Origin: Ramazzottius varieornatus
Taxonomy: Eukaryota; Animalia; Tardigrada
Length of the DNA: 64,000 bases
Assembly (NCBI GenBank): GCA_001949185.1
Contig: BDGG01000006.1
Location: 2,276,827-2,340,826, forward strand
Direction: 5' to 3'
Under the pieces are notes generated by a model, which was given only the letters and a program-made list of their open reading frames with translations, did no database searches and was not told where the DNA came from. Below, piece by piece: positions 1-61,609 of this stretch. The first letter of the stretch is position 1. Each line of letters begins with the position of its first letter. Position numbers and translations under genes: made by a program.

Positions 1-1237
1 GAGGATCATGTTGGAAACTTTTCATCTGGGCTGGGCTGAAAAACGACGGGGGATGGAACAGTTTTGAGCGGCAATCAAGTTAATTTGCCTCACATCATTA
101 ATCATCTTTGACTTTCGCCAAATCAAAATTTGGTGAATGGAACGTTATCGAAAAGATTTGAGAGCTGATTCCATCCATCAAACAAACGTTGTCAATGATT
201 TTCCGCCAGCTTGGTGATGCTTTGATGCCTCATATGGAATTTTTCTACGGCATCTTACTATCATATGTCATACTACTACATTTTTTGATGACCGGAACAG
301 GAGAGAATGCATTGAATAAGCAGCCCAAAAATACCTGGTTAATGTATGGGGCTTAATAGTCAATCATCGTGAAGGCTTCGCGTCCAGATCTTCCGGGTGC
401 TATTTTTCTTTCGCACAGAAGCTTCCGCCAAGTGTTTGTTTAGTGAGAGAAAATGGTTTTTGATGTGTCGCTACAAATGCATGTTTGCCACACTTTGGCG
501 CTATGGCGTACCACTTCCCAGCCGGTTTAGTAGCCGATCTGTCGCATCGAGAGCCCATTCTTGAAAAATTAAAAGAGCGGAATACAATCTCCTCCGCTTT
601 TCATGTCTCCGTTGATCCATCGATGAGCGGCAATAAACTGGCTGGTTACTTTTCTAATTTCCATCTAAAGCAAAGAGCTAATCGGTTGGTACATACAGTT
701 CTTTGGCGTGAAATTTGAAGATGGGTCCTCCATTAATACTTGATCAACGGTCGGTCTTTTAGTTTCTCAAATGAACCGTTGTGACGACTTCATTTTCGAC
801 CGCTTTTTTCCTCACGTTAATCTGTTTACTGACCAAGCAAATACCGCACGTTAAATGGCGAGTAATGGTCAGTGAAACACACCGCGTGTCAAGTTGCCGA
901 AGAGAATCATGTTTTAACTGGTCCAACCACACTTTTGACCGGCTTTCCTTCCGGTTGAAATCTTGACGAAACACAGAATCTCCATTCCAATACTCAGTAC
1001 ACATTGGGGCATTTATTCTGTTCAGTCATTTCCTCATTTTCGACCTGAAACGCCTTTCAGAAAACACATATCTTCCGCTACTCAGCAATCAACCGATCAT
1101 ACCCAGGCTAGAATAGTCTCCCGGCGTTCGCTTGATTGACTCCTCACGAACGGATTCGGGCAATAATTCGCGAGGGTTTATTCTACGATTGATTGGAGTA
1201 TACTTGATTGACGGGATCGCTCTCCCTTGTTTTACAG

Positions 1238-34100: not shown

Positions 34101-34808
34101 ATGAGGAGCTGTCAGAACGACGGAAGTCGCCTGTGGAGCTTGTTTCTCAGCGTCAATCTCATCCTCTGCCCAGCTTAACAGGCTGATTTTTTGTATCATA
34201 CAAGCCATGATGCCCGTTTATGTTGGTCTAAAGTACGGATTATTAGTGCCGCTATTCAACATGGCCACACTTGAATGCCAGATCGTCATGTCTTACTAGT
34301 GATGGATTTGTCACGCTCTTCTCTTTTCATCGGTTTCTTTTCGGGTTTTCTACAATCATACTGATGCTTCTTTTACCGCATTATCGTGAAATGGATATGT
34401 GAATCGAAACCACTCGTCTAATGTAGACGTGTGGACAACGGTTTTGATTGTAGAGATCTGTTTGCCCAACATCTAAAGAACCTGTAAGTGACCTTAATCC
34501 ACGTTCGAAGCCCTTCATCAGCGACCATAAGAACGTTAGTCCTTTCTATGCAAACTCTTCTGCCAGAAAATTTCGTAAAGGTTTCCATAATTTCGATGAT
34601 TCGGTTTGTTTCAGTTCGGTTATCGGCTTCGGTTTCTGATATCGGGTATGACAAAGGAGAGCCGCTAATTTCTGTAACTTGGCAGGTGTGAGTCCCCTTG
34701 CCCCAAACATTTGTTCTGTAGGTGAGTTGCCGTTTGGGCAAGCTGTCCTTCTTGACTGACTCATGATGGAGTCCACCAAGACTCGATAAACTCGTACACC
34801 CCACAAAG

Positions 34809-37800
34809 ATGGAACTATTTGACCCAAACGATAATCACACCCTCGTGCCAAACCCAGTTCCGCTGCCCCTCTGCGAAGGTTACGGCTCAGAGGACGGCAG
34901 TCCACAGGAATATCATTTGCCGTTGGGTTGGCAGTACGGTTACGGCTTGTTGTGCGCCATTATTTCCATCATGGGCGCAGTGGGAAACGGCATCGTCATC
35001 TGGATTTGCCTGTATTACCGACGCATGAGGACCATCACCAACTTTTTCATTGCCAATTTGGCGGCTGCCGACCTCCTCCTCAGTATCTGTAATGTCCCGC
35101 CGACCAGTTACTTCATCCTGACGCAGAACTGGCCCTTTGGCCAAGCCGCCTGCGCCTTTGTCAATTTCATCGCCACAACGCCCATCGTGGCTTCGGTGCT
35201 GACCATGATGTGCATCTCCATCGATCGGTAAGTTTCTTCAGCTCGTATTTCTACGACGGGCATGTCTCGAAACCCTAACAATATTGGGACGTGGCCAAAT
35301 GGACTGGATCAACTCGCCATTTCAAGTGGCGCGATGTTGGCTGTAGGTGTGCGCCACTTGAAAAAAACGATATTGTTCAACATGGTTTCAATATGTTGTA
35401 AACCAGTAATCCGCCGTAGACCAAGACAGGTTTCCTCAGGCCGACTGTACCGACAGCTTTTGGCGCTCAGACTGGAAGAGAGTCAATTTCTTTGTCCTTG
35501 GCACAGAAGCGGGGCGGGTTTTCCCGCGGCTATGGAATGGTATTGCAAGAAATGAAACTCCGCAGGGAGGTTCCAGTTGGGGCATGTAAGTTTGAACAGG
35601 AGACGGAGTAAATATAATCATAATCTATCGGCCAACCTCCACTGCATGTACAGAAACACCAAAAGTTGGACGAAAATGCGATTATACGTCAATCTGAGCT
35701 TTGCTTTTGAGAATATGTGTCAGAGCAAATACATGACCCAATGGAGCTTATTATGTGACATAACGTTAACTGGCCTGATCGCTGTCAGTCATTTTTTGCC
35801 AAATTCGAGTCCTCATCCAACATGTGTTACTTGTCCCCTTCCGAGGCTGTCATCAAAACCTCGTCAGCCAAAGTAAAAAAATGAGAGACGGTAATCTCGG
35901 AAGTAGTTGAACATTTGCAGATGATGACCCAACGACAAGTGAGGTCTCCAAACGATGCTGGCGATCAAGCGAAGTAGTTCGTGCGTAACCGAAGAACATC
36001 TCGCTGCCACACCCTTTCAAACTCGCGCACTGAAATTGTTCGCGCAGGCTATGGGATGCGTCTACAAGATGTGATTCTTGGTATTTGAGCGTGGAGAGAA
36101 CGATGGGACCATTCACGACTTCACTCGGGTCGCTCCTCACGTAGGCAGTTCATTGCGAACCTTTCTTGGTATTTGGGTTTGCAATGTGATGTACACTGTA
36201 GTGGGTAGCGAGAATAGTGCGGGTGCTTAAGCGCTGATACCCTCCATAGCATGTTGACGAGTTCTTTGAAATTACCATGGACAACAAAGCTTTCCTGTGG
36301 CGTAACATGTTTTCCTTCCATCACAAAGCTGAGTTGCGGAAGTCGAACGCTAAAGTGCTCCAATACAATTCGGTCTTTAGGTACATTGCCATCGTCCATC
36401 CGATGCGTCCGAGGATGAGCAAATACACCGCTTACGTCATAATTGTGGCCATTTGGCTAACCGGAGGCAGCGTCTCTTTTCCAGCCCTGGTCTATAGCGC
36501 TACGTTCGCTAATGGCAATACAACCATCTGCTCGCTCCAGTGGGACGCTCCTCAGTCGGAGAAAAAAGTGAATTCAGGTTCGTGCAGAAAGTTGCATTAT
36601 AGTATTCTGTTCTGCAAATACAACCGGAAACACGACAAATTTTCGGTGCGGTACCATCGTGTACACAGTATTGTATTATTGGCCAGAAGCTGATGGACAT
36701 ACCAGACTTTCGCAAAGGACGTCCCACCCTGCACCATATTTTTAGACATATTTGAAATATTTACTACCATTAATTACTTTGACAGAACGATTCATTACGA
36801 ATGGAAATATGTGACAGGTTATTCTATGCACACTAATTTTTTACAGAGTTCATCTATCAGTTTGCGTACATGTTCATTACGTACTTCGTTCCTGTGGTGG
36901 CGCTGACGTTCGCCTACGGAAGAGTGGCCAAGGAGCTGTGGGGAACCAAAAGCATCGGGGAGATATCGGTTGCTCAAATCGAAAGTATTAAGAGCAAGAA
37001 GAAGGTCATTATTTCTCACTCAATCATTGTAGTCATTTCCGGTAGTTTGGCAAGTTTGTGCTATGAATTGGTATATCGTTATTCCCCAACATTTACAGCT
37101 CGTTAAAGTCCTCATTTGGGTAATGACGACATGTGCCATATGCTGGGCACCCTTCCATATATGGTTCATCGTCACCAGCATCAACCGATGCGTACAGTTG
37201 TTGAAACACGCTTCTCACATTTTCACAAGGTAATTTTGGTATTGCAATATTCTTTTATGCTCCAGAATTTCAGCTCTGAATTTCCCTTGCTCCGAGATTT
37301 CTAGATCTAGTGTTTGAAAACTGATGGAAACGTGTGCAACTGAATTGAACAAGGTCTTTGTCTCAGATGGCGCACGTTTACACCGTTACTGGCTGGAAGG
37401 GTGCGCCACTGGAGCGCACGATCTAGTTCAAAAAACTTGTTCACGTCTCAACGAAGGCTTTCACCGGTTAGTGTGAAAGTATTGATCAAGAGAGTAGCCT
37501 AAAATAGAAATTAAGATAAATTATTGAGAATGAGCGTGAGAGACTTAGATTGATTCGTCATCGATTTTAACCATTCGATTGCTCATTCATCTATTTTTTC
37601 GCAGTTCCTACGTCTTAGCAATGTCCAATTCCGTCTATAATCCCATTATCTACGTCATCCTCAATCAACGCTTCCGTCAAGGTTTCAAACAAGTTTTTCA
37701 ATGGCTTCCATGGGTACACTTTGACCCGTCTGAAGCACTTGACCGTCCACAGCGAGGCACTGGCCAACATCACAACATTACACGGGACGCCTTCAGTTCG

Positions 37801-38058
37801 TGCCATGACATGAACACCATGCGCAATGGTGGCTCCAGCCACGCTCTAGCCAACAGCCACTCCACCTTGAACAATCATAACGGCACTCATCGTACAAGCG
37901 GAGCGTCCACATTTCAAAGTCCGACCAGCAGGAATACGCTGACTGTGGACGAATCTACCAGGAATAGGTTGTTGCCTAGTTTTGCTCTCCAAGATGCCGA
38001 TGGCTGCCGGTTAGGCAAAAAAGGCATGGCGAAATGCGACTCCATTTACTCATTTTGA
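34809..38058 (+). CDS. Tachykinin/natalisin-type neuropeptide GPCR (5 coding exons)
   Basis: GNGIVIWI...[26 protein letters not shown]|[27 protein letters not shown]|LVK, CWAPFH and [13 protein letters not shown]...NQRFRQGF; exons 34809-35227, 36381-ca.36570, 36848-37003, 37099-37228, ca.37604-38058. Confidence 0.9.
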
Positions 38059-39320: not shown

Positions 39321-42300
39321 TCATGAATCAAGCTTCGCCTTTCGCTTCTCCCGCCCCAAAGGCCATCTGATGTTCTGAGAAAATTGTTCTTCATTCTGCA
39401 TAGAAGGACTCATAAATTGATTATCGTTCTGGAAATTAACCGGTCCCCTTCTGTCCACACGGTCTAAGCGATCCAGCCGGTCTCGCTGACGATTAGGTTG
39501 CTGGTTTCCATTGTTCTGGTTTTGTTGGTCTTGCTCAAAGTTACCGAAGGCATGTGTGCGTGAGCCACTGGGAAGCGCGCGATCCACCGGAAGATTAGGG
39601 CTGGGCGCTACATCGACAAATGCTACAGTTAGTACTACGATAGAGCGGTGGTGGCAAGAAAGTGGCGGTCCTTACTTATAGGGCTAATGGTGGTAGCAGC
39701 ATTTGGGTTAATTGTGACGACGCCCGGTACGATCTGGCCGTTGTTCAGGCCATTGTTGATTCCGGAGTATTGCGAACTGGAGGTTGCTCCATATTGCGCT
39801 GTCCCTGTTCCCGCTCCGAAGCCGAGGCCGTACTGCGGTACGGTCTGTAAACTGCAACACATTCGGTCAAGCGAACAACACCAACACTGGGCAGGGCCCG
39901 AGACAACGGCTTGAGACCAAAGTGATTCGGTCCACGGGATCTAGGAGCTACTGTACAGTGTTTATTTCAAGCCGATGCATTACCTTGTCCCGTAGCCAGA
40001 CTGCATTCCCACTCCTAAGCCTAAGCCCGGATACTGGCTCATACCCACACTGCCGAAGGGGCTCCCCAGCATCGACTGACCGTATAACCCGGCGCCACCT
40101 AGGCTCATGCCGCCGTACCCGCCGCCCTGCTGCAGGCCAACACCGTAGCTCCCAAGACCGCCTAGTTGGCTTCCATAACCGCCACCGAGAGCTGAAGAAG
40201 TATAGCTGAAACAGCATAAACTTGAAATATGCCGAGAAAACCAGTAAAGCCCGAACTCACCCGCCAACACCGCCGATGCCGCCGATTCCTGTGCCACCGT
40301 ATCCCCTGAAAAGAAAATATTTAATTTTTCTGTTCCTGATTATGAAAACATTCTACGGGAAAGTACCCCATTCCACCAATGCCACCAATGCCACCAATGC
40401 CACCAATTCCGGAAGTACCGTATCCGGACCCCATGCCCGTTCCGATACCAGCACCACCCCCGCCATAGCCACTACCGATGCCAGATGAACCGTAACCACC
40501 GACTCCACCACCTATGCCTATGCGGAAAAAGCTTCACGTATGGAACATTGATGGAACTAAAGGGGGGGGGGGGCATACCTCCAAGTCCACCACCGTATCC
40601 TCCAACACCAGCTCCGATACCACCACCGTACCCAGAGCCCACACCGCCTAGACCACCAGAACTGTAACCTGTGCCGATACCCGTACCGATGCCTCCTGTA
40701 CCGTAACCGAGGCTAGACCCAAAGCCTGTCTGTCCATAACCACCAGCCCCAATACCGCCAACACCACCCCCACCGTATGAGCCAAGTCCACCACCGATGC
40801 CTGTCTGTCCGTATCCTGCGCCGATGCCACCACCAACACCACCTCCGAACCCAGTCTGTCCGTAACCACCGACACCAGCACCGATGCCCGACTGACCATA
40901 CCCACCACCTCCTCCAATACCACCGATACCATTCTGTCCATAACCACCAAGTCCACCTCCCAATCCGGACATGCCATAACCGCCACCGAGACCTCCTAAT
41001 CCCGATTGTCCATATCCGCCGACGCCTAGTTGGCCAAGTCCGGACTGTCCGTAGCCCCCCAGGCCACCTCCGTAGCCACCACCACCACCACCGTAATGCA
41101 TAGCGCCTAGGCTTTGTGATCCATAGCCACCAAGTGCGCCGCCTCCGCCACCACCGTAACCACCCAGGCCTCCACCGACACCTTGCATCCCGTAGCCGCC
41201 CCCAAGGCCGCCACCTAGCCCACCTCCGTAGCCACTACCACCGCCCATGAGTCCTCCTCCATAACCACCTTGCATACCGTAACCGCCACCGCCGAAACCA
41301 CCACCACTGCCGCCGTAGCCACCTCCCCCACCTGAGTTTCCATAGCCACCGCCTCCGCCACTATTGCCGTAACCACCACCACCTCCGCCACTATTGCCGT
41401 AACCACCACCACCTCCGCCACCGTTACCGTTACCGTAACCACCACCACCTCCGCCTGTATTGCCATATCCTCCACCGCCACCGCTGTTCCCGTAGCCTCC
41501 ATTTCCACCTCCGTTACCGCCTCCGTAATTTCCCCCACCGTTGCTGTATCCACCTCCTCCGTTACTACCACCGCCGTAGCCTCCTCCTCCACTGTTTCCT
41601 CCATATCCACCACCGTTACCTCCGCCGTTGTTTCCGTAACCACCTCCACCGTTATTATTACCGCCGTAGCCACCACCACCCCCTCCACCTGAGTTTCCGT
41701 ACCCTCCCATGCTACTAAACCCACTGGAGCCCTGGTTGTAACCGCCACCGCCGCCACCACCACCGGATCCGTATCCGCTGTTTCCGTTGTTGTTGCTGCC
41801 TACCATTCCGTAGCTTCCAGAGTTACCTCCAGTATTCCCACCATAACTGCCTCCTCCGCCGTTATTTCCTCCATAGCCTGCGCTACCACCTGAGCCGCCA
41901 CCGTAACCTCCTTGGCTGTTACCGTAACCAGATGCTCCAGATCCACCAGAAGTGCCTCCATAACTGTTTGAGCCAGTGCCGTAACCTGCAGAATGTACCA
42001 CAGTTATGTCTCAACTTTGGGAAACTGGTCTTTCCATGAAATCATTTCTTGGCACTCACGCTGACCAGAAGCAGCTGGAGTTCCAGAATTGGTATTCTGG
42101 CTGGCAGACTGCGCAGATCCCGTACTGTACATCATGCCAATTTGCGAAGACCTGCGACAACGTAACTTGAAATCAGAAAGCCGTATAGAATGCTGCGACT
42201 AAGAGCACCGGTCAATTTGGTCATTGAATTTCACTCTGTGACGCTTACGCTGATGGTTGTGGAGCTCCGTTGCCCATGGCATACTGTCTGGGGCCGTTCT

Positions 42301-44559: not shown

Positions 44560-47153
44560 TACAGTTTCGTGTTTTTCGTTCCGTTGATCACAACAGTCAT
44601 CTAGATTCTATGACGTCTTCCGAGTCGGCTGAGTCGGTCTGCTCTCTATGGCTAGTTCCCTAACACTCGACCGCGAAAACTGGCACAAACCCCTGCTGAA
44701 AAACAGAGTAGCTTCGGAACTGCCAAGTGGAGCGGCGGCATCGTGAAGACGAACATCCACGGTTTAAAGAGCGTACCAACGGATGCCCAAACTGCAGTCC
44801 ATGTCGATACTCGACTATACATCATCCGCAACATCATGGACGGCGAAATGGCGTTTGGGATGATTGCAATCAGGAGCGGTGACCAAGCGATCAGCGAGGT
44901 CGGTGCAATCCGGCTGACCACCAGCAAGTTGAAGAACGAGGTTCGAGTTCGAGTCAGATGCTGGATACGGTCAAACTTCTCTGATCTTAAATTTCCGAGG
45001 TAAGGAACATAATTCAGGCACAGCAATTTTTACAGTTCAGGCATATTTCTTGAGTTCCTGCTGCATTTAATCGCGTGCTTGTTTCTTTTCCAGCGGTAGA
45101 TCAATCTCTCTCCTCATGGTCCAAATATGTTTGGATACGATGAAATGTTGTAGGTCGAAAGAATCTGTTGTGAGGGAGAGACGGGTCTGCCCAATGCGAA
45201 AAAAACTAAAGTTGTATCAACAAGTGTACGATAAGAAATCAATCAAGCGTTGATAATAAAGCTTAAACTTTTCGCATCGCCCGAGTTATGTCCTGTACGT
45301 AGTTCCAGCCAATTATGGAGCGGCAGACGGTTTCACACTATCCATGACTCATCTGCCTTAACAACCAATAACTTAGCTGCTCTCGCTGAGAAATCACAGG
45401 GTAGCATAGATATGATACCGTCAACCGCTCAATAACTGACTGCAAAGCAGTGTTGTTCCGATAAAACGTATTTTGATGTATAATGCAGAATTCAATTTCG
45501 ATCTGGGCCGCTGTAACCATAGACTTAACATGGGCAACCGGATTTGAATTGGTTCTGCTGTCGTATCGAAACAACACTGCTGTAATAGAAAATAAGCAGA
45601 TTATTTGCGGTCAACTGTGGAGCGACTTCCTTCTCCTTCTCCGAGTTTCCTTCTCATATTTCCCCTCGTACGCACCCGATGTGAACGTTCGAGCTGTCCT
45701 TTCGAGCTAGTTTAACCGTATCCGGCATCGCTGCTTTCAGTGGTTCATCCACGTGAACGGGTACAAAAAAAGGAGGAGGACGACGGATAAGAAGTGAACC
45801 GTGAGAAAACTCTTCGATAATACTGGTAGGTTTTGGAAGGATAACTGAGTTTGACATGGTTTGATAGGCTCGGCAAATGAGTAATACAGATTGCCACTGG
45901 TTAGCATGAGGATTTGCACCAATATCTAAGCTGCAATGCAGAAACGCCAAAGTCAGCTTTTCTAATTCGATTGCCAAGTTGGTTCGGAACTTTTCTGTTC
46001 TCTCGCGATATTTCCGATGACGTAGGTGTGTTTACATCAAGTTGGGGATAAAAACTCAAACATGGAACTTTTTCGACCGTATTTGACTTGCTGCGGTATG
46101 CCTTCCCTACCGGAAGACATGGCAGCCAAGTTTTTCACGCAGTATGCCAGAACAACTAATCGAATCATGGCCCGGCCGAAGCAGCTCAAAAAATTGTACG
46201 GAAAGTGTGGAAGTATGAATGGTAAAGCAGCAATCTGACTTTTTCCCATCGAAATGTCAGGTTGTAGCAAGTTGGCGTGGACAGGGTGTATTATGCGCAT
46301 CAGAATCAAAAGCCGAATCGTTCCACAGATCAGCGGCAACCGCCCTTTTTGTGCTGGGTGAGTTCATAACACTTCAACCTTTACGACTCGCAGAAGACCA
46401 GTTCAGACTACCGTGTTCTGGATATTTTTAGGGTATGATTAACCTAAAGTTACTTCAGGGAGTTTATTCGGCTGGACCTCCAAAGAACGTCCGTTAACGA
46501 ATTAGGTCTGCAGACTCCGCCAAAGGTACGAAACGAAGATACGTGTGGGAAACGTGTTCGATCCTCACCAAGCTGAAAGTCAGGGTCGGTAAAAGAATAT
46601 ACCGGAAGAGACAGTCTATGTAACTGATCGTAAGAGCGCCAGAAGCCATACGGCGGCTCCCATCAGAGTGCTTTGTGTAGGTGCGAAGTGGATGAGACGG
46701 ACTGGTAAAGACGGAACTCCGGCTCCATTTGGGAAAATGACTAGTCAGGTTCCACTACACCTACGTCCCTCGGGCTCACCCAACCCGGCACCTGGCGCTC
46801 TTTGCTATCGGGAGATCCTATTAACGCACCTGACAGGAGAAATGCACGTCTAGATACGCGGGGCTGCCCCCGGGGTAGGACCCCTGGTGACCGTGTTGTT
46901 TGAGGGGAACTACCCTTGACCTTCCAACCTGACGAGCTGACCTTTCTTCAGTGACCTTTATCGGAATGTTACTCACGTAACTCACCGCCTAACGTCATCA
47001 CCTCGACCGGAAGTGATGACGTCATCGGCGCGCTCCGATAACGCAGTTATCATTTTCTTTGATTTATTGTGTGGGTCTTCTTTCTTTCTTCACGTTTTAT
47101 TTGTTGACCATTCTTTTCTTACAAGTACAAAGTCTAAGAAGAGGAGAAGAATG

Positions 47154-47501
47154 CTAAGACTCAGAAATGCCTTCGTCAATGTCCAGCTCCATGAGCAGGT
47201 CGTTTTCGTTCTTCTTCAGTTCTTCCCAGCAAAAGTAATCCTCAGCAGGAATCGGCAGCGTCTTCCCGTCCTTGGTCACCTTTTTTAGCAGACAACGATC
47301 CTTCAAGTCCTGGTACACCATTTTGGCGCACGAATTGATTGCGCACGTTTCGCAGCACGAAGGCAGTCCCTTGTATTCGTGTCCAAAGGCATGGCAGTAG
47401 GCCGTAAATTTTCCATACTGCACGCTTATCAGGAACTCTCGACGACATCCTTCATCCGCAGCGATGATCCGGATAACGTCCTCGCACGTGGGATAAACCA
47501 T
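47154..47501 (-). CDS. Small Cys-rich hypothetical protein, probably Polinton-borne
   Basis: Intronless 115-aa ATG ORF co-oriented with the protease; TATATAAA about 45 bp upstream and AATAAA downstream on the minus strand. Confidence 0.55.
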   Translation of the reverse strand: MVYPTCEDVIRIIAADEGCRREFLISVQYGKFTAYCHAFGHEYKGLPSCCETCAINSCAKMVYQDLKDRCLLKKVTKDGKTLPIPAEDYFCWEELKKNENDLLMELDIDEGISES

Positions 47502-47576
47502 GTTGGTAATGGAAAGGAAATAAAAATGAGATATATGGCTCGTTTATATACAGAAAATGCAGAACGGCATTAACAA

Positions 47577-48212
47577 CTACCTAAAGGATTCGGTACGTTT
47601 CGAGATTAACATCTTCGAATACCGCAATGAGGATTCCAGCCCCATGGTGTAATTCGTCTCAGAAGCATAGCATCCAAATATTCGTGCATTTTGGCTTTTT
47701 TCTATCGCAGTATATTTTTTTGTTGTACGATTTCTTAAAAAATCATCGTCTTGGATTTCTGTGTTCAAATCAAAAAAATGGTTGACGCATTGGCACACCA
47801 TGATATCATTGGCCTTTGTATATTCAGTAAACAAATGTATAGTATGCGAATATGTTTCATGACCAGCTCGTCGTAATAAAAAGATCAAATATTGTCCGCA
47901 GACCGTGCTCGATTCGGACTGTGACTGATGAGACTGAGAAATAATGCGGTTCTTTTTTGCCACTTTGGCCAAATGAGGAGAATAGGTTCCTAGTTCTTTT
48001 CCAAAAGAATCAAAGGTCTCATTGACACCCGCCTTACCCTGGTACAAGGCTACCCAATGGGAGCCCGGTTCGTCGCTCGCATCCGTATTAACAATGCATC
48101 CCGAAGACAGTTGAGCGAATTCGGGAACTTCATCGCTGCTGAAAACTCCTCGAAATATTCGTCTCGTACCAGGATGCGTTCTTAAGGCTCGATCAATCTC
48201 TTGGGTGTTCAT
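47577..48212 (-). CDS. Adenain-like (Polinton PRO) cysteine maturation protease
   Basis: MNT.EI...FRGVFSSDE.P, IVNTD...PGSHWVA, FDSFG and Q...STVCGQY place His/Asp/Gln/Cys catalytic residues in adenain order. Confidence 0.92.
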   Translation of the reverse strand: MNTQEIDRALRTHPGTRRIFRGVFSSDEVPEFAQLSSGCIVNTDASDEPGSHWVALYQGKAGVNETFDSFGKELGTYSPHLAKVAKKNRIISQSHQSQSESSTVCGQYLIFLLRRAGHETYSHTIHLFTEYTKANDIMVCQCVNHFFDLNTEIQDDDFLRNRTTKKYTAIEKSQNARIFGCYASETNYTMGLESSLRYSKMLISKRTESFR

Positions 48213-48910
48213 GATGCAATTTGGCGTTGTTCGTTAATCTACAGGACAAAATGTTACGAAAAGGTAAGGTTCGATGGGAAGAAAAACTTGTCTTACTTCA
48301 ATCAAGTTGTCGTAAACCAACATGGCCGCCATCATGATCACTTCCTTCAATGGCTCCGCAAAAGAAACTGATACTGAAAGTGTACCCTGCTTGATGAGGT
48401 TCATTGGTCCACGACCAGTGGATCCCGGGGTTAAATCAAAGCCAAAGATGGTGTTACCCTGTTCAAATCCATCTCGATCGAAATTACATTGACCGTTGGG
48501 TTCATAGCGCATGCCCAAAGTATTGAGCAGGCCATCGTAAGCTTCCAGGCTTTGATGCTTGGGAAAGTTCATATGATACGGTTTGGTTGGAAAGCTTTGT
48601 CCATCCACTTCAACACTGAGTTGCGTAATATTATAATGTTGAAAGTTGAAGGGTGGTTTTTTAATGCGTCCTTGATAATCCTCGCTGGCTACAAAGCCAA
48701 GGAAGACCACTTTGGGTGGAGCACCAATGTGTAAATTGGAAATTATGGTGCTTTGCAGCCCACGCACAATATCGGTGGTACGCATGGTTGTACGTTCGAT
48801 AGCATATTTGATTGCCTGCTTTTGGAGTTCTTCTGTGACTTGAATCAAGTAATCTGGAGCAGAGATGAACCGCCGAATAGCGATCTTGGAATTACGAATG
48901 ACAATGTAAA
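48209..48910 (-). CDS. Polinton major capsid protein (double jelly-roll, PY), 5'-truncated, with intron 48239-48296
   Basis: Y.I.R, NLHIGAPP...GFV, PFNFQH, VDG..FP..P...NF, EAY..L, GNTIFGFDLTP, GTLSVSVSFAEPL and YDNLIE|INEQRQI match the C-terminal half of Polinton MCPs as recalled. Confidence 0.88.
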
Positions 48911-49465
48911 AGCTCGGAGTAAAAGTGAATTTCACGGAAGTGAAACTAAAATGCATGGTCTATGATCGGTATTAAATTCAGTTTTATGCTTTGAAACAGA
49001 AACAACATGAGGAAGATGAAGTTCTATCTTCCTCTAACCATGATATCAAGTTTGGTTTGGATAAATCTAGGCTGTAGACGCTAGAAATAATAATTTAAAG
49101 AGCGGACGTCGGTTTGTCGTGGTTTTTAACTGGTTTCTTTACTTTTTGAGGCCGTAATCTTCTAAATGTGTTTAAAATTGAAGGTATTTTAAGAGTAAAT
49201 AGCTGTTAACGAGGGATTAAAATACCTTTATCAAAACTAAGACTAAACTCCGTGGGACTAAAACTTCATCTCGGAAGTGAAACGAAAATTCAAGGGAGTA
49301 AAACGCCTTCGAACGAGAGTAAAACTAAATTCGCCGCGAGTAAAACTGAGTCGTCTGAACTAAAACTGTATACTTTGAGACTGAATTATTTTACTCTGGA
49401 GTAAAACTAAACGCAACACTGTAAGACTGGAACAGTTCTCGGGTATCCGGAGGGAGTGAAAATTC
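48911..49465. repeat. Degenerate array of GAGTAAAACTAAA-type units (about 21-22 bp spacing) truncating the capsid gene
   Basis: ggagtaaaagtgaa, gaagtgaaactaaa, gactaaaact and gagtaaaactaaa variants recur at about 48916-48950 and 49230-49465. Confidence 0.6.
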
Positions 49466-49582
49466 AATCAAGGCGGTTGACCGGAAAATGATCGGCTCGA
49501 AGCCACTATTTTGTACCCGACAAATAAAATAATCCGATTTTGCAGCGAATATTGAAAACAAGGTGGAGCTCTGTGATCGCGT

Positions 49583-51872
49583 TTAGCCGCCTATTTTAAT
49601 TTCTTTGTCAGTGCCGTCGTCAATATTCGGCGGACCGTATCCCGGTTCGCTTTTTTCCTCGTCGACCGGCTTGTTCTTCGATGCATTCTGAGAAGTAGAC
49701 CCTTTCTTCGAATCTTTACTCTCCGTTAGGTCTCCGTGCGAGCTGGAGGACAACTTTGACGTTTCATACAAAAACCTCCGGAGCTTAGATACCGGCACGT
49801 AGCCGGGCTCCATGTTACTCTCATCATCCGTCATCGGCGGCTTTTTCCTTTGTGTTCCATCCAGCCTGTCTGGTGCAAAGACAGGAAATCTTTTATCAAA
49901 ATCACTTTGGGGCAAGCCGTCAACGCTCTCAGGTTGCTGTTGTTGCGGTGTCGGTAGTCTGCGTAAAGCTCCGCTAGGTGATGGTCGTCGGTTCGGCATT
50001 GGTCTTCTTCTGCGATTCGGATCAAACTGAGGTCTGTCTGGCCTTTGGTCCCTGCCGGGAGGGCGTTCTTCTACATCTCGGTCCGGTGCCTGAGGCGGTT
50101 CTCTTGGACGCTGGGACTTCTGGAATAATGGTTTTCTAACCAACGTATCGTCATTCCATGGCTGAACGCTTCTGTCAACTCCAGCATCGGCTTCTGCCGA
50201 TTCGGCGGATTGCAATGCTTTTTCAGGCCGCTCAACTGCTGGCGAAGGAGGTCGTTCTTCAGGTGGCGGGCCTTCTGAAATCTGTTGTATGGGACGTCGA
50301 ACCATGGGCCGTTGTGGTCGATTTTGAGGCGGAGGTCGCCTGTTTATTTCCGAAGGGATCTGTTGCTGTACTGAAGGTCTTCCTTCTTGCGGCGGAAACT
50401 GCGGCCGGTTTTGTAGAGCACGTTGTCGCGATACTTGTTGCTCTTTCCGGGGCTGTTCGCCACCCTCTATACCAGGCGGGCTTTCGTCTGTGGGAGGTGG
50501 CTGTCGCGGTCGCTGCGGGCGGTATTGTCGCATGGGAAAGTTTTGAGGTATCTCGCCGGCAAAAATGGGTCGACTCTGCGGAGGTGGTCCTCGCTGGCCT
50601 TCGTAATTGGGCGGGTATATTGGAGGTCCATCGCTTAACTGTTGGCGCGTTTCTTGGCCGTTAAACCCATTATCTGGGGGTAGTCTGTCTTGATCACCGT
50701 CAAAGACCGGTCGTCCGAAAAAGCGTGGACGGTACTGTGGTGGAACAGGTCCTTGTTCGAGTTGATCGGGTTGTTGCATAAACGGAGGCACCATAAATCG
50801 TCGCGGTCGTTGTCGTGGATCTTGTTGTTGAAATTCCGGTGGAAGCTCTTGCTGTCGCAGAACCAGATCTTGTTCACTTAGTCTAGAAAAAACTTGTCCT
50901 GAAGCTGCGTCGCGGTTGTCCGAAAAAGCGGAATCTGCAAGGAGAAACACGTTTACGAAATGACAAGATATCAAGATAATTCCATCGTGCCAGACAAAAG
51001 GACATTAATTTTGTAAGTAAATCCCGCCTGCGCGATCGAATTTTGCAGTCACAACTTCGGCGTATAGTAGTCAGAAAAAACAGCATTGATGGATGCGAAA
51101 CAAACAAACCTGATCCGTCTGAGCTCTTCTCCGCATTCGTATCACTTTGGCTTTGCTCCCTCGACCGTAACTTCTGCTTTGCAATGGCGGCGCGTCTTCT
51201 GTATTCTTGCTCTGCCGCAACTCGTCGCTGCTGCGCATCGACCAGCCGATAATCGAAAAACATCGGTCGGTCGTTTGTCCGAAACAACGGTTGCTGCTGC
51301 TCCGGACGTTGCGACTGCCTCGTTAAGATATACCCGCCATTGTGTGTCTCCAAAAAATCTTCGTTTCTTCTGGTCGAAGCAGCCGGTACTCTCTGCATAA
51401 AATTCCAGTCTTTGGTTGCGTCATATGCCGTGACCACAGCGGCATCTTGTCCGATCGAAGATGAGGCTAGATCTTGATTGTTTAGTTCGTCGAGCATCCA
51501 ATGTCTGGGTTCTCTTGATGGTCCATCAAGTGTTCGCGCTGTTCGCGAAGAGCGACCACCTTTGACAGCGCTAAACGAAGAAGATCCAATGTCCAGCTCA
51601 TTACTTTGTTTCGTGAAGGACGAAGCAGATTTCTTGAAGGTGATAACGGGAACCAAAGATGGTTCCGCTTTGATCAACCGGCGTCTTTCTGCAGGTGCGT
51701 AGAAATTTTCGAACTGCTGAGGATCAAAGTTACTTTGCGCTCCTTCCCAAGGAAATTGGCCCTTGACGAGATTTAGTACAGTGGCGAAGCCGAGTGCCAC
51801 GGGTAGAAACGATATCTGTAACGGAATAAAGACGTCAGAACGAATCAGGGACCAAAGCAATTGACTTACCAT
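49583..51872 (-). CDS. Secreted, intrinsically disordered Pro/Arg/Gln-rich protein of unknown function
   Basis: ATG|gtaag micro-exon at 51872-51870 joined to ISFLPVALGFATVLNLVKG (signal peptide); two long open exons (about 51815-51110 and 50935-49583) with low-complexity composition. Confidence 0.7.
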
Positions 51873-58986: not shown

Positions 58987-61609
58987 CAGGTTGATTCTGA
59001 TTGCTTCGACGGGTTTTGAACAGCTACAGAAAATTCCGCTATTGCTTCCGTGCTCTCGAATTACGTTCACCTGTAGCTCTAATTGTTAAAAACCTTCTTT
59101 AGAAATGTAATCCAGATCGTATGAGTGAGAAAAAACCAAGTACGAAAAACTTTGAAGGACCCGGAAATCAGGGGTCGTTTTCGAAATGATACATAGAGGG
59201 TTCAACAAGTTCTAAAGCTGATTCTACCACAAATTACGGATTCGCCCGAACTTCACAACTTTTCAGAATAAGCACCATCAACCTCTTTGCAACGTTTAGA
59301 TCAAGAAACCCCGTCGCCAAACATTTCCTGGTAGAAGTTTTTATCAAAAGAAGCAAGAGCATCGTCACTAGCGCTATCGAGCTCCTCTTCCGTCGAACAT
59401 TTTTTCCCTTTAACAGATCTTTTAGTTTGGGGAACGGCTAAAAATCGCAGGCAGATACCTTTGGAGAATGAGGGGGATGAACAATAATATCGAGCTCCTG
59501 CTCGGCCAAAAGTTCCGATATTGTAAGTGCGCTATGTCATTTCGCGTCGTCGTGGTGAAGCAGTTTCCCCCGAAACCCGCCTTTTGGACGTCCGTTTCTC
59601 AGGATCTCACACAGCGGTTTCAAACAGTTTTCGATGTAAGACGCAGCATTCGTCGACGGTTTACGAGGTAGCTTTGTTTTGAAAGTAACTCCGTTCCGAC
59701 CCAGGAAAAAGTTAGACATACGATTCTTGATGCTCTTCGGTGCCGTACAACCATGGGTGCGTCACTGTCTTTTTCGACCCATTCCTTATTGTATTCCTTC
59801 CGTTTCGGGTCGTAATAATAGATACAAGATTCATCGCTAGTCACCACATCGCGCTTGAGGATATGAAGCATCTGCTCACATCTACGTACTTTTTGCTGAC
59901 GTTGGTTCTCCGTCAGTCCATGAGGTACCCAGGGAGCACCAATTTCTTGCAAATTAAGATGACCGTGTAATTTGTGTTCAGCCGTTCCCACTGAAATATC
60001 CAGTTTCTGCGTTTCTGCGCTATATTCCTGACGGTGGTGTGACGATCTTCTTTCATCAGCTTGCGTGTCAAAGTAATCTTTTGTCGGTGCGCGCCGTAAC
60101 AGCAGCCCCAGTGCATCTTCCAGATCGAAAATCTTTCGATGAAGAGTTCTGTACCAGTACTCAGCAGTTGATTTCGATGAAGATTCATCCCCCAACACTT
60201 TACTCATCCTCTCGAAGCATTCCCGCGTCGTCAAGTTCCGCTTGAAATTACACAGTATGAAGCTTCGGTGAAACGGCTCATCCTAGTGCGCCATGTTAAC
60301 GGGGAAAGTGAAAAGTTCGTCAGGTGCTAAAATTGAAATTTACGATTCCTTGCGAGTTTGAAGTCTATTCACTCGGTCTTTTGGTAATGATCCGTAAACA
60401 GGTCAGCCCTTTTTTTGGATAGTGGCATAAGAATCTAGGCCAACTGGGGTAGTCACGCATTAAAACTTATTGAACCCCCTATGTATTTTGCCCAAGTCCG
60501 GGTTTGTGCGTCACTGTACGAAGCTTCCGAGAATATTCCGTGCATGCAATCTTGTTGGGACAGCATTTCACCACACGATAAGAAGAATGCCTTCTCATAT
60601 TTCTGTTTCTGACCATTAAACGACGTGGTAAGCAAAGAATTGAAACAGTTTCGGGAACCATTTGTGCTTGGTTCTTTGGCCATTTATTAAGAGTGTTCTA
60701 TCGGTTTTTATCAATTAACACAAACATTTTTGTGTCGCATAAAAATGATTTGCAGTAACTTGACAGTTTTACACGTCCATCAGAAATGTTTTTCTCACTG
60801 AGGCCAGTCTTCACCAGCAAAATACATAGGTGGTTTTCTGCCAATCACACGGATAAGCTAATCAATGTTTTGACGATAAGGCCTACGTAGGTCGCAAGAT
60901 CTAGAGATGCTCTACCGAACGAGCTGAGGTACGGTTGCAACGAGACAGAAACAGATGTACTACATACTGTAGTGCTCGCAGTTTATCGCGCACTCAACCA
61001 CGTGATTAGTCAGGTTTGCCCGGCAAGATCAGCTGTTGCCAGAAGGGTGTGAGTTGATTGACTTTATTGGGTCGTCAGTTATTTTGAAAAACGATCCGGT
61101 CCGAATTCCAGTTTCTTTCACTGGATCCGAAGGTAGAAAACATTGTCATGGCTAGGACCCGTATATTTATGCCGATGAGGATGCGGAGAAAGCTTTGAGG
61201 AACTATGAAGAGATCGGATTATCGAGGAGAAAGCATGCGAAGCTTACAGGAATTCCGGAATCAGCCATGCGCAGCTGGTGGTGGGTCGAATGATACCTGT
61301 TCCGTAAGCAGCTGATAAGCTTCACGGAACCTCATGTTTTTGCTTCACAAAGCAAAGATTCCGGGCAAGCGAGGACCGGAGAAAAGTGAGCAGATACCGG
61401 AAACGCTCCAGATGGAAATGAGCAATTTGAGTTGACTTTTCAGAATAACACTTGTCTTAACCGATGGCCAATCATTGATTGTTGATTAAGCAGTACAACG
61501 TCTAAAATCCCCGATCGGGCGTTATTTACTGTTCACGTGGTTGAGTGCGCGATAAACTGCGAGCACTACAGTAATTCCAAAAGCCGTCGAAGTAATCGGA
61601 ATCAACCTG
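58987..61609 (-). mobile_element. Decayed mariner element with nested insertions
   Basis: TIRs caggttgattctgattgcttcgacgggttttgaa / ttccaaaagccgtcgaagtaatcggaatcaacctg, with TA on the left; transposase relic at about 59250-60290 with WVPHGL, TSDES.IYY, LLHHDDA and HPPHSP...CDF, broken by frameshifts and stops. Confidence 0.9.
60967..61571 (+). mobile_element. pogo/Tigger-like non-autonomous element
   Basis: Perfect 39-bp TIRs ctgtagtgctcgcagtttatcgcgcactcaaccacgtga with TA TSD; internal HTH_psq-like relic YADEDAEKALRNYEEIGLSRRKHAKLTGIPESAMRSW (about 61168-61280). Confidence 0.85.

Follow-up and report, generated by a model that had tools for sequence, protein, structure and literature searches.

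The end of a Polinton capsid gene in a tardigrade genome raises the question of whether a core virion gene of such an element carries a spliceosomal intron, and whether removing that intron does more than complete the capsid. The gene lies in the 64-kb stretch of DNA analysed here (64,000 nt, the window), where a 58-nt segment interrupts the capsid reading frame shortly before a protease gene. The initial annotation proposed that splicing both completes the capsid and creates an ATGA overlap of capsid stop and protease start, which could couple protease translation to that of the capsid. The features at issue are these:

48297 to 48915, minus strand: remnant of the first capsid exon, the 3′ half of a double jelly-roll major capsid gene whose 5′ half is absent (homology to P0103).
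48239 to 48296, minus strand: candidate phase-0 GT-AG intron of 58 nt, predicted from the sequence and from same-position inserts of 57 and 60 nt in P0103, P0048 and P0101.
48209 to 48238, minus strand: last capsid exon, 9 codons and TGA (sequence and comparison with homologues).
48234 to 48236, minus strand: stop codon met on intron retention (reading frame).
48209 to 48212, minus strand: ATGA overlap of capsid stop and protease start (sequence; also in five of five intronless loci, L081 to L085).
47577 to 48212, minus strand: open reading frame (ORF) of an adenain-type cysteine protease, 211 aa (homology to P0057 and P0016).
47154 to 47501, minus strand: Cys-rich ORF of 115 aa, probably the next gene of the element by its position (no Pfam hit).
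48918 to 48967, no strand given: host repeat with a 21-nt period at the start of the capsid homology (same repeat family at 49236-49346).

The two main ORFs are the capsid and adenain-like protease of a Polinton of the adintovirus type. The capsid ORF is 70% identical to P0002, whose structural model (pLDDT 93.5) is a double jelly-roll that matches the capsids of PBCV-1, faustovirus and Sputnik, with the PBCV-1 capsid 8h2i_bx as best match (Z 27.4, rmsd 2.8, 353 aligned). Sequence searches of Pfam and the PDB did not recognise the capsid family, and its nearest named relatives are Paramacrobiotus metropolitanus proteins labelled "uncharacterized protein F54H12.2-like" (53-64% identity). The protease carries its His, Asp and Cys motifs at the positions found in relatives. 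It has no Pfam hit at E 0.1, and P0016, 80% identical to it, matches Peptidase_C5 (E 5.4e-5). Five intronless loci from one metagenome scan, L081 to L085, together encode an integrase (rve) with a chromodomain, PolB, an ATPase-like gene, the capsid and the protease; PolB, the rve integrase and the ATPase occur in L081, L084 and L085, the ATPase match being weak (E 0.018). The order of double jelly-roll capsid followed by adenain protease is shared with animal Polintons/Mavericks (adintovirus-type, Eupolintoviridae). A further 80 protease loci were distant (24-45% identical over the catalytic region among the matches listed) and were left out.

Judged by its sequence, the copy in the window has decayed to a fragment and would be unable to make a whole capsid. 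The capsid ORF is 80% identical over 215 residues to residues 212-426 of P0103, and the homology begins near 48915, at about residue 215 of 453, beside the host repeat, which provides an ATG at 48956 that is not the capsid start. The protease is 79% identical to P0057 over 161 residues, but this homology ends at 47733, and the protein is one codon shorter than its relatives just past the catalytic-Cys motif and some 40-50 residues longer at its C-terminus (211 aa vs 163-171 aa). About 2 kb of the element is present. No tblastn hit to the other Polinton core genes (PolB, integrase, ATPase) was obtained in the 64-kb window, and no long inverted repeat was found in 45500-49600, where only one element end could lie.

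Eight sequencing runs (X1 to X8) out of 24 listed were compared with the window at the level of assembled contigs, and they bear on the surroundings of the fragment as well as on the intron. A TATA-like box (47550) and AATAAA-type signals (47101 and 47068) accompany the 115-aa ORF. A paralogue about 85% identical to this ORF occurs in X3 and X5 at a depth of 12-20, and therefore another copy of the element is probably present in the same species. The G+C-rich non-coding stretch at 46881-47038, of which X6 has a second, diverged copy with 7 differences, is possibly the terminal repeat region of the element. The 21-nt-period repeat (48918-48967 and 49236-49346) recurs in X3 and X5, in another transcript contig with high coverage.

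On the minus strand, the 58-nt segment opens with a GTAAGA donor at 48296 and closes with a TAG acceptor ending at 48239. Its pyrimidine content is 64%, and AG is absent between intron positions 10 and 58, so that the acceptor is the first AG past position 10; the borders, length and pyrimidine tract described in the initial annotation are thus all present. Beyond the acceptor come nine codons and the TGA at 48211-48209, and the read-through frame meets TAA at 48236-48234, 21 nt ahead of the protease ATG, as had been stated for the unspliced ORF. The branch-like TAAC that had been pointed out stands at 48256-48253, but with a G before it this is a weak four-letter match. The segment had also been called the size of host introns here, which does not agree with the five host introns measured in the window (94, 175, 269, 375 and 1153 nt), a small sample in which every intron exceeds 58 nt. 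The 175-nt intron comes from an RNA joint, and the other four were read by eye in a GPCR gene (34800-38058, plus strand; introns of 94-1153 nt) that is presumably tachykinin-receptor-like, also by eye. Mean intron lengths in two tardigrades are given as 158 and 255 nt in one study (PMC5531438).

A blastn search for further copies of the intron, which an introner would be expected to have, gave no second match across the 64-kb window. The contig of the DNA-like run X6 spans 47393-49133 and is identical to the window throughout, which argues that the intron sequence is not an assembly slip, although X6 may be the window's own source. Taken as a whole, the segment is likely an ordinary host-type (U2) intron, and it is very likely that the intron is real. 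Elsewhere in the window, 40472-41806 (minus strand) holds a 444-aa Gly/Tyr/Asn-rich ORF, and an ORF at 59620-60207 (minus strand) resembles, by eye, a mariner transposase fragment.

The peptide that follows the acceptor was compared with a capsid-end profile of 130 capsids, made up of 12 close sequences and 118 of 148 new representatives, with the 30 fragments, fusions and tail-broken rows left out. Scored separately over six residues, the post-AG peptide reaches +10.9 bits and the read-through tail (of the type VRQVFLPIEPY) -16.8 bits; against the 118 distant rows alone, the scores are +10.0 and -17.2. Of all 7,569 hexapeptides read directly behind an AG in the window, two score this high, the candidate site included, and the acceptor is the best of the 16 AGs located 30-300 nt behind the donor. 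The post-AG peptide includes the near-invariant Arg436, the exons on either side of the intron are co-linear with intronless homologues when the pieces are scored separately, and all 118 distant capsids run straight through the intron border. In the P0002 model, the last exon corresponds to the end of strand 418-432 plus strand 438-440 (mean pLDDT 96 at 431-440) and falls inside the range aligned to PBCV-1 Vp54. The claim that the spliced end fits that of Polinton capsids holds for the first seven residues, but the exon then stops four codons early (9 vs 13) and lacks the conserved Asp-aromatic end, the best-scoring pair in the profile. This shortfall, seen in a single copy, may reflect decay of the window copy or a family trait. 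The profile scores support the view that intron removal would complete the capsid end.

The same codon border is interrupted in related elements. From 76 close capsid records, 14 of which have no readable end, 62 ends could be read: 41 are uninterrupted, 17 break exactly at the border and 4 break nearby. All 17 continue with Val (GTN), and 13 of them with Val-Arg or Val-Ser, the coding of a GTRAG donor; with many near-copies among them, these records amount to about four independent groups in three clades. Such sister introns are seen at the level of protein read-through and protein ends. P0103, the sister of the window copy in the tree (81% identical, support 100/98), has a 19-residue insert at the border, running from Val-Arg to Leu-Gln, and P0048 and P0101 each have a 20-residue insert with the same ends; in all three a complete 13-residue last exon follows. 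The remaining 14 records end after 2-22 unrelated residues, through a stop or frame shift inside the insert. The borders and last exon are thus constant while the insert varies in length, frame and content, which is intron-like behaviour. The suggestion that the intron marks a Polinton lineage is supported, for a sub-lineage, by these 17 protein records.

It is highly improbable that the segment is not spliced at all, adding coding sequence in some sisters and inactivating the gene in others. Such a reading would accommodate the in-frame, stop-free inserts of three records, the decayed state of the window copy and the one unspliced RNA contig described below, but it does not sit well with the stops and frame shifts in 14 of the 17 site records, nor with borders that are GT and AG in the window and Val and Leu-Gln in the sisters. 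Furthermore, the insert falls just where the last jelly-roll strand (residues 418-432) ends, and multi-member clusters with intact proteases carry it.

As to its history, the groups that bear the intron fall in one clade (100/100) along with the apparently intronless P0002 and P0003, at a fork without resolution in trees that omit P0035. The AU test does not reject a single origin (p 0.437), which appears in 3% of bootstrap trees. The intronless P0002 and P0003 within the clade make several gains or losses possible, although P0002, P0003, the RefSeq Paramacrobiotus models and some ENA records may be spliced products. Outside the clade, the DNA-verified state is that of L081 to L085 only, all of them intronless. 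With 118 distant capsids uninterrupted, gain of the intron inside a sub-lineage would be the simplest reading. The context at the border codon is AA followed by GT in three of the five intronless loci (L081, L083 and L085), a partial proto-splice site. Searches of viral and genome contigs for DNA of the intron-bearing sisters yielded no true match; one further locus, L086, proved to be a chance match (best E 0.041).

Among the runs, X1 is identified as RNA by the splicing of a neighbouring host intron at a depth of 83. Junction reads over 48239-48296 had been named as a check on the intron, and no spliced joint occurs there in the contigs of the eight runs. The sole X1 contig over the site among those listed (48096-48314, depth 3.7) runs through the acceptor border without splicing and extends only 18 bases past the donor. 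Among the contigs listed, X2 to X5 and X7 have no piece over the intron and are neutral on splicing, and X8 covers 48263-49366 only. The X1 contig counts against efficient splicing of the window relic and says little on active elements; it may represent nascent read-through from a host gene or DNA carry-over. A similarly low depth is also seen on nearby intergenic DNA. An expressed host gene at 49137-51802 (minus strand) contains a Pro/Gln/Arg-rich ORF of 403 aa and, at 50935-51109, an intron of 175 nt. This gene shares the strand of the capsid remnant and ends about 220-250 nt upstream of it; low-depth X1 and X2 contigs downstream of the gene may be read-through RNA or DNA carry-over.

The overlap itself is present in the window as described: the TGA of the spliced frame (48211-48209) shares three bases with the protease ATG (48212-48210). 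However, the intron does not create it. The capsid TGA overlaps the protease ATG as ATGA in all five intronless loci, so that the overlap is conserved in relatives, and the idea that the intron is needed to couple translation of the protease is not supported. A second ATGA joins the integrase to the next gene in four of four loci (L081 3963-3966, L082 4259-4262, L084 4670-4673 and L085 2173-2176), and the remaining gene junctions in these clusters have a spacing of 1-4 nt. Since intronless relatives have the overlap, and have it at the integrase junction too, ATGA is an ancestral packing feature. On this comparison the overlap predates the intron, and splicing would merely return the capsid frame to its ancestral stop.

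The geometry of the window does fit a switch in which splicing turns on termination-reinitiation, with the spliced mRNA alone stopping at ATGA and the retained-intron mRNA stopping 21 nt earlier. AUGA overlaps drive reinitiation in caliciviruses and victoriviruses, in some cases without a UGGGA motif (PMC3542737). In caliciviruses, influenza B and victoriviruses, a capsid gene and a gene required at a lower level likewise share a stop and start within four bases (PMC3542737). Those, however, are RNA viruses with a mapped upstream signal, whereas the present case is a nuclear DNA element. A switch of this kind is nevertheless very unlikely here, given an overlap older than the intron and the absence of the calicivirus-type motif UGGGA from the zone 40-90 nt before the capsid stop in all five loci (one of them has it at 109 nt) and from the three window pieces. 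Moreover, the inserts of P0103, P0048 and P0101 are in frame and free of stops, and retention there would still lead to the normal stop, leaving nothing to switch. On intron retention in the window, capsid and protease share a frame with one TAA between them; this was set aside as incidental, the sister inserts being 57 and 60 nt long.

The final 150 nt of the capsid gene hold no slippery heptamer in the five loci or the window pieces, and a frameshift fusion of capsid and protease was ruled out for that reason. Hexon-Adenain ("Hexain") frameshift fusions have been proposed for adintoviruses, where tight hexon-adenain junctions with the protease in the -1 frame have been described and C-truncated hexons are also noted (PMC11071296); the present junction differs in having no heptamer. 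By analogy, unrecognised terminal introns could be a cause of those C-truncated hexons.

Four protein records point to two further candidate intron sites. The capsid breaks 2 nt upstream of the window intron site in P0106 and P0115 and 20 nt upstream of it in P0011 and P0051. These breaks run into Gly-Lys or Gly-stop, fit phase-1 GTAAGT donors and stand on separate branches of the tree. If all three sites are real, three separate intron gains took place within a 20-nt stretch some 40-60 nt ahead of the protease start, and such clustering would go beyond neutral expectation.

Adenovirus late genes use separate acceptors. An analogous arrangement, in which the intron was retained in evolution since its acceptor serves the protease and an upstream donor or leader is spliced to it to give a monocistronic protease mRNA, must be weighed here. 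The acceptor AG stands 26 nt before the protease ATG (38 nt in full-length sisters) with no ATG in between, the three candidate positions within 20 nt belong to three separate lineages, and the aligned capsid bodies are otherwise uninterrupted ORFs. Even so, this reading is unlikely: intronless relatives retain intact proteases, and the two extra sites consist of Gly-Lys or Gly-stop protein ends in four records. In addition, the searches favour near-full-length ORFs and under-sample deeper introns, so that the clustering at the 3′ end may be one of ascertainment. It is consequently doubtful that tardigrade-type Polintons made at least three intron gains within 20 nt, each with an acceptor that would give a separate protease mRNA, as a repeated evolution of adenovirus-like late splicing.

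The reading preferred here, at a probability of about 0.72, is that a U2 intron was gained in one Polinton sub-lineage in which ATGA was already present, and that the intron is a tolerated passenger. The ancestor of that sub-lineage would have gained it within the last 14 capsid codons. For an intact element to give its capsid the conserved last strand, removal of the intron by the host spliceosome would be required each time, and the spliced frame would then end at the ancestral ATGA. The intron would have no special role for the protease, which would be expressed as it is in the intronless sisters.

This differs from what has been described in other Polinton-like elements. Core genes of a nematode Maverick are described as intronless, with the introns in its cargo genes (10.1101/2022.07.12.499685), whereas here a core capsid gene has an intron common to a sub-lineage. 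For the eupolintoviral proviruses of dinoflagellates, spliceosomal introns derived from introners are on record, about 25% of them in coding regions (PMC12166617). Those are mostly recent, multi-copy transposon insertions made after integration in protists, while the intron discussed here occupies one position across animal elements that are about 65-80% identical in protein, with unlike inserts. A literature search covering mostly openly available papers, PMC8502044, PMC10748475, PMC12220804 and PMC11071296 among them, found neither Polintons of tardigrades nor any spliceosomal intron described for the capsid gene of an animal Polinton.

Retention of an intron in a core virion gene throughout a family of elements would imply that host transcription and splicing in the nucleus act on these Polintons, and that the intron was gained while the capsid was still under selection for function. 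It would also mean that ORF callers give false or truncated capsid C-termini, as in 17 of the 62 readable records, and that intact elements may be scored as broken.
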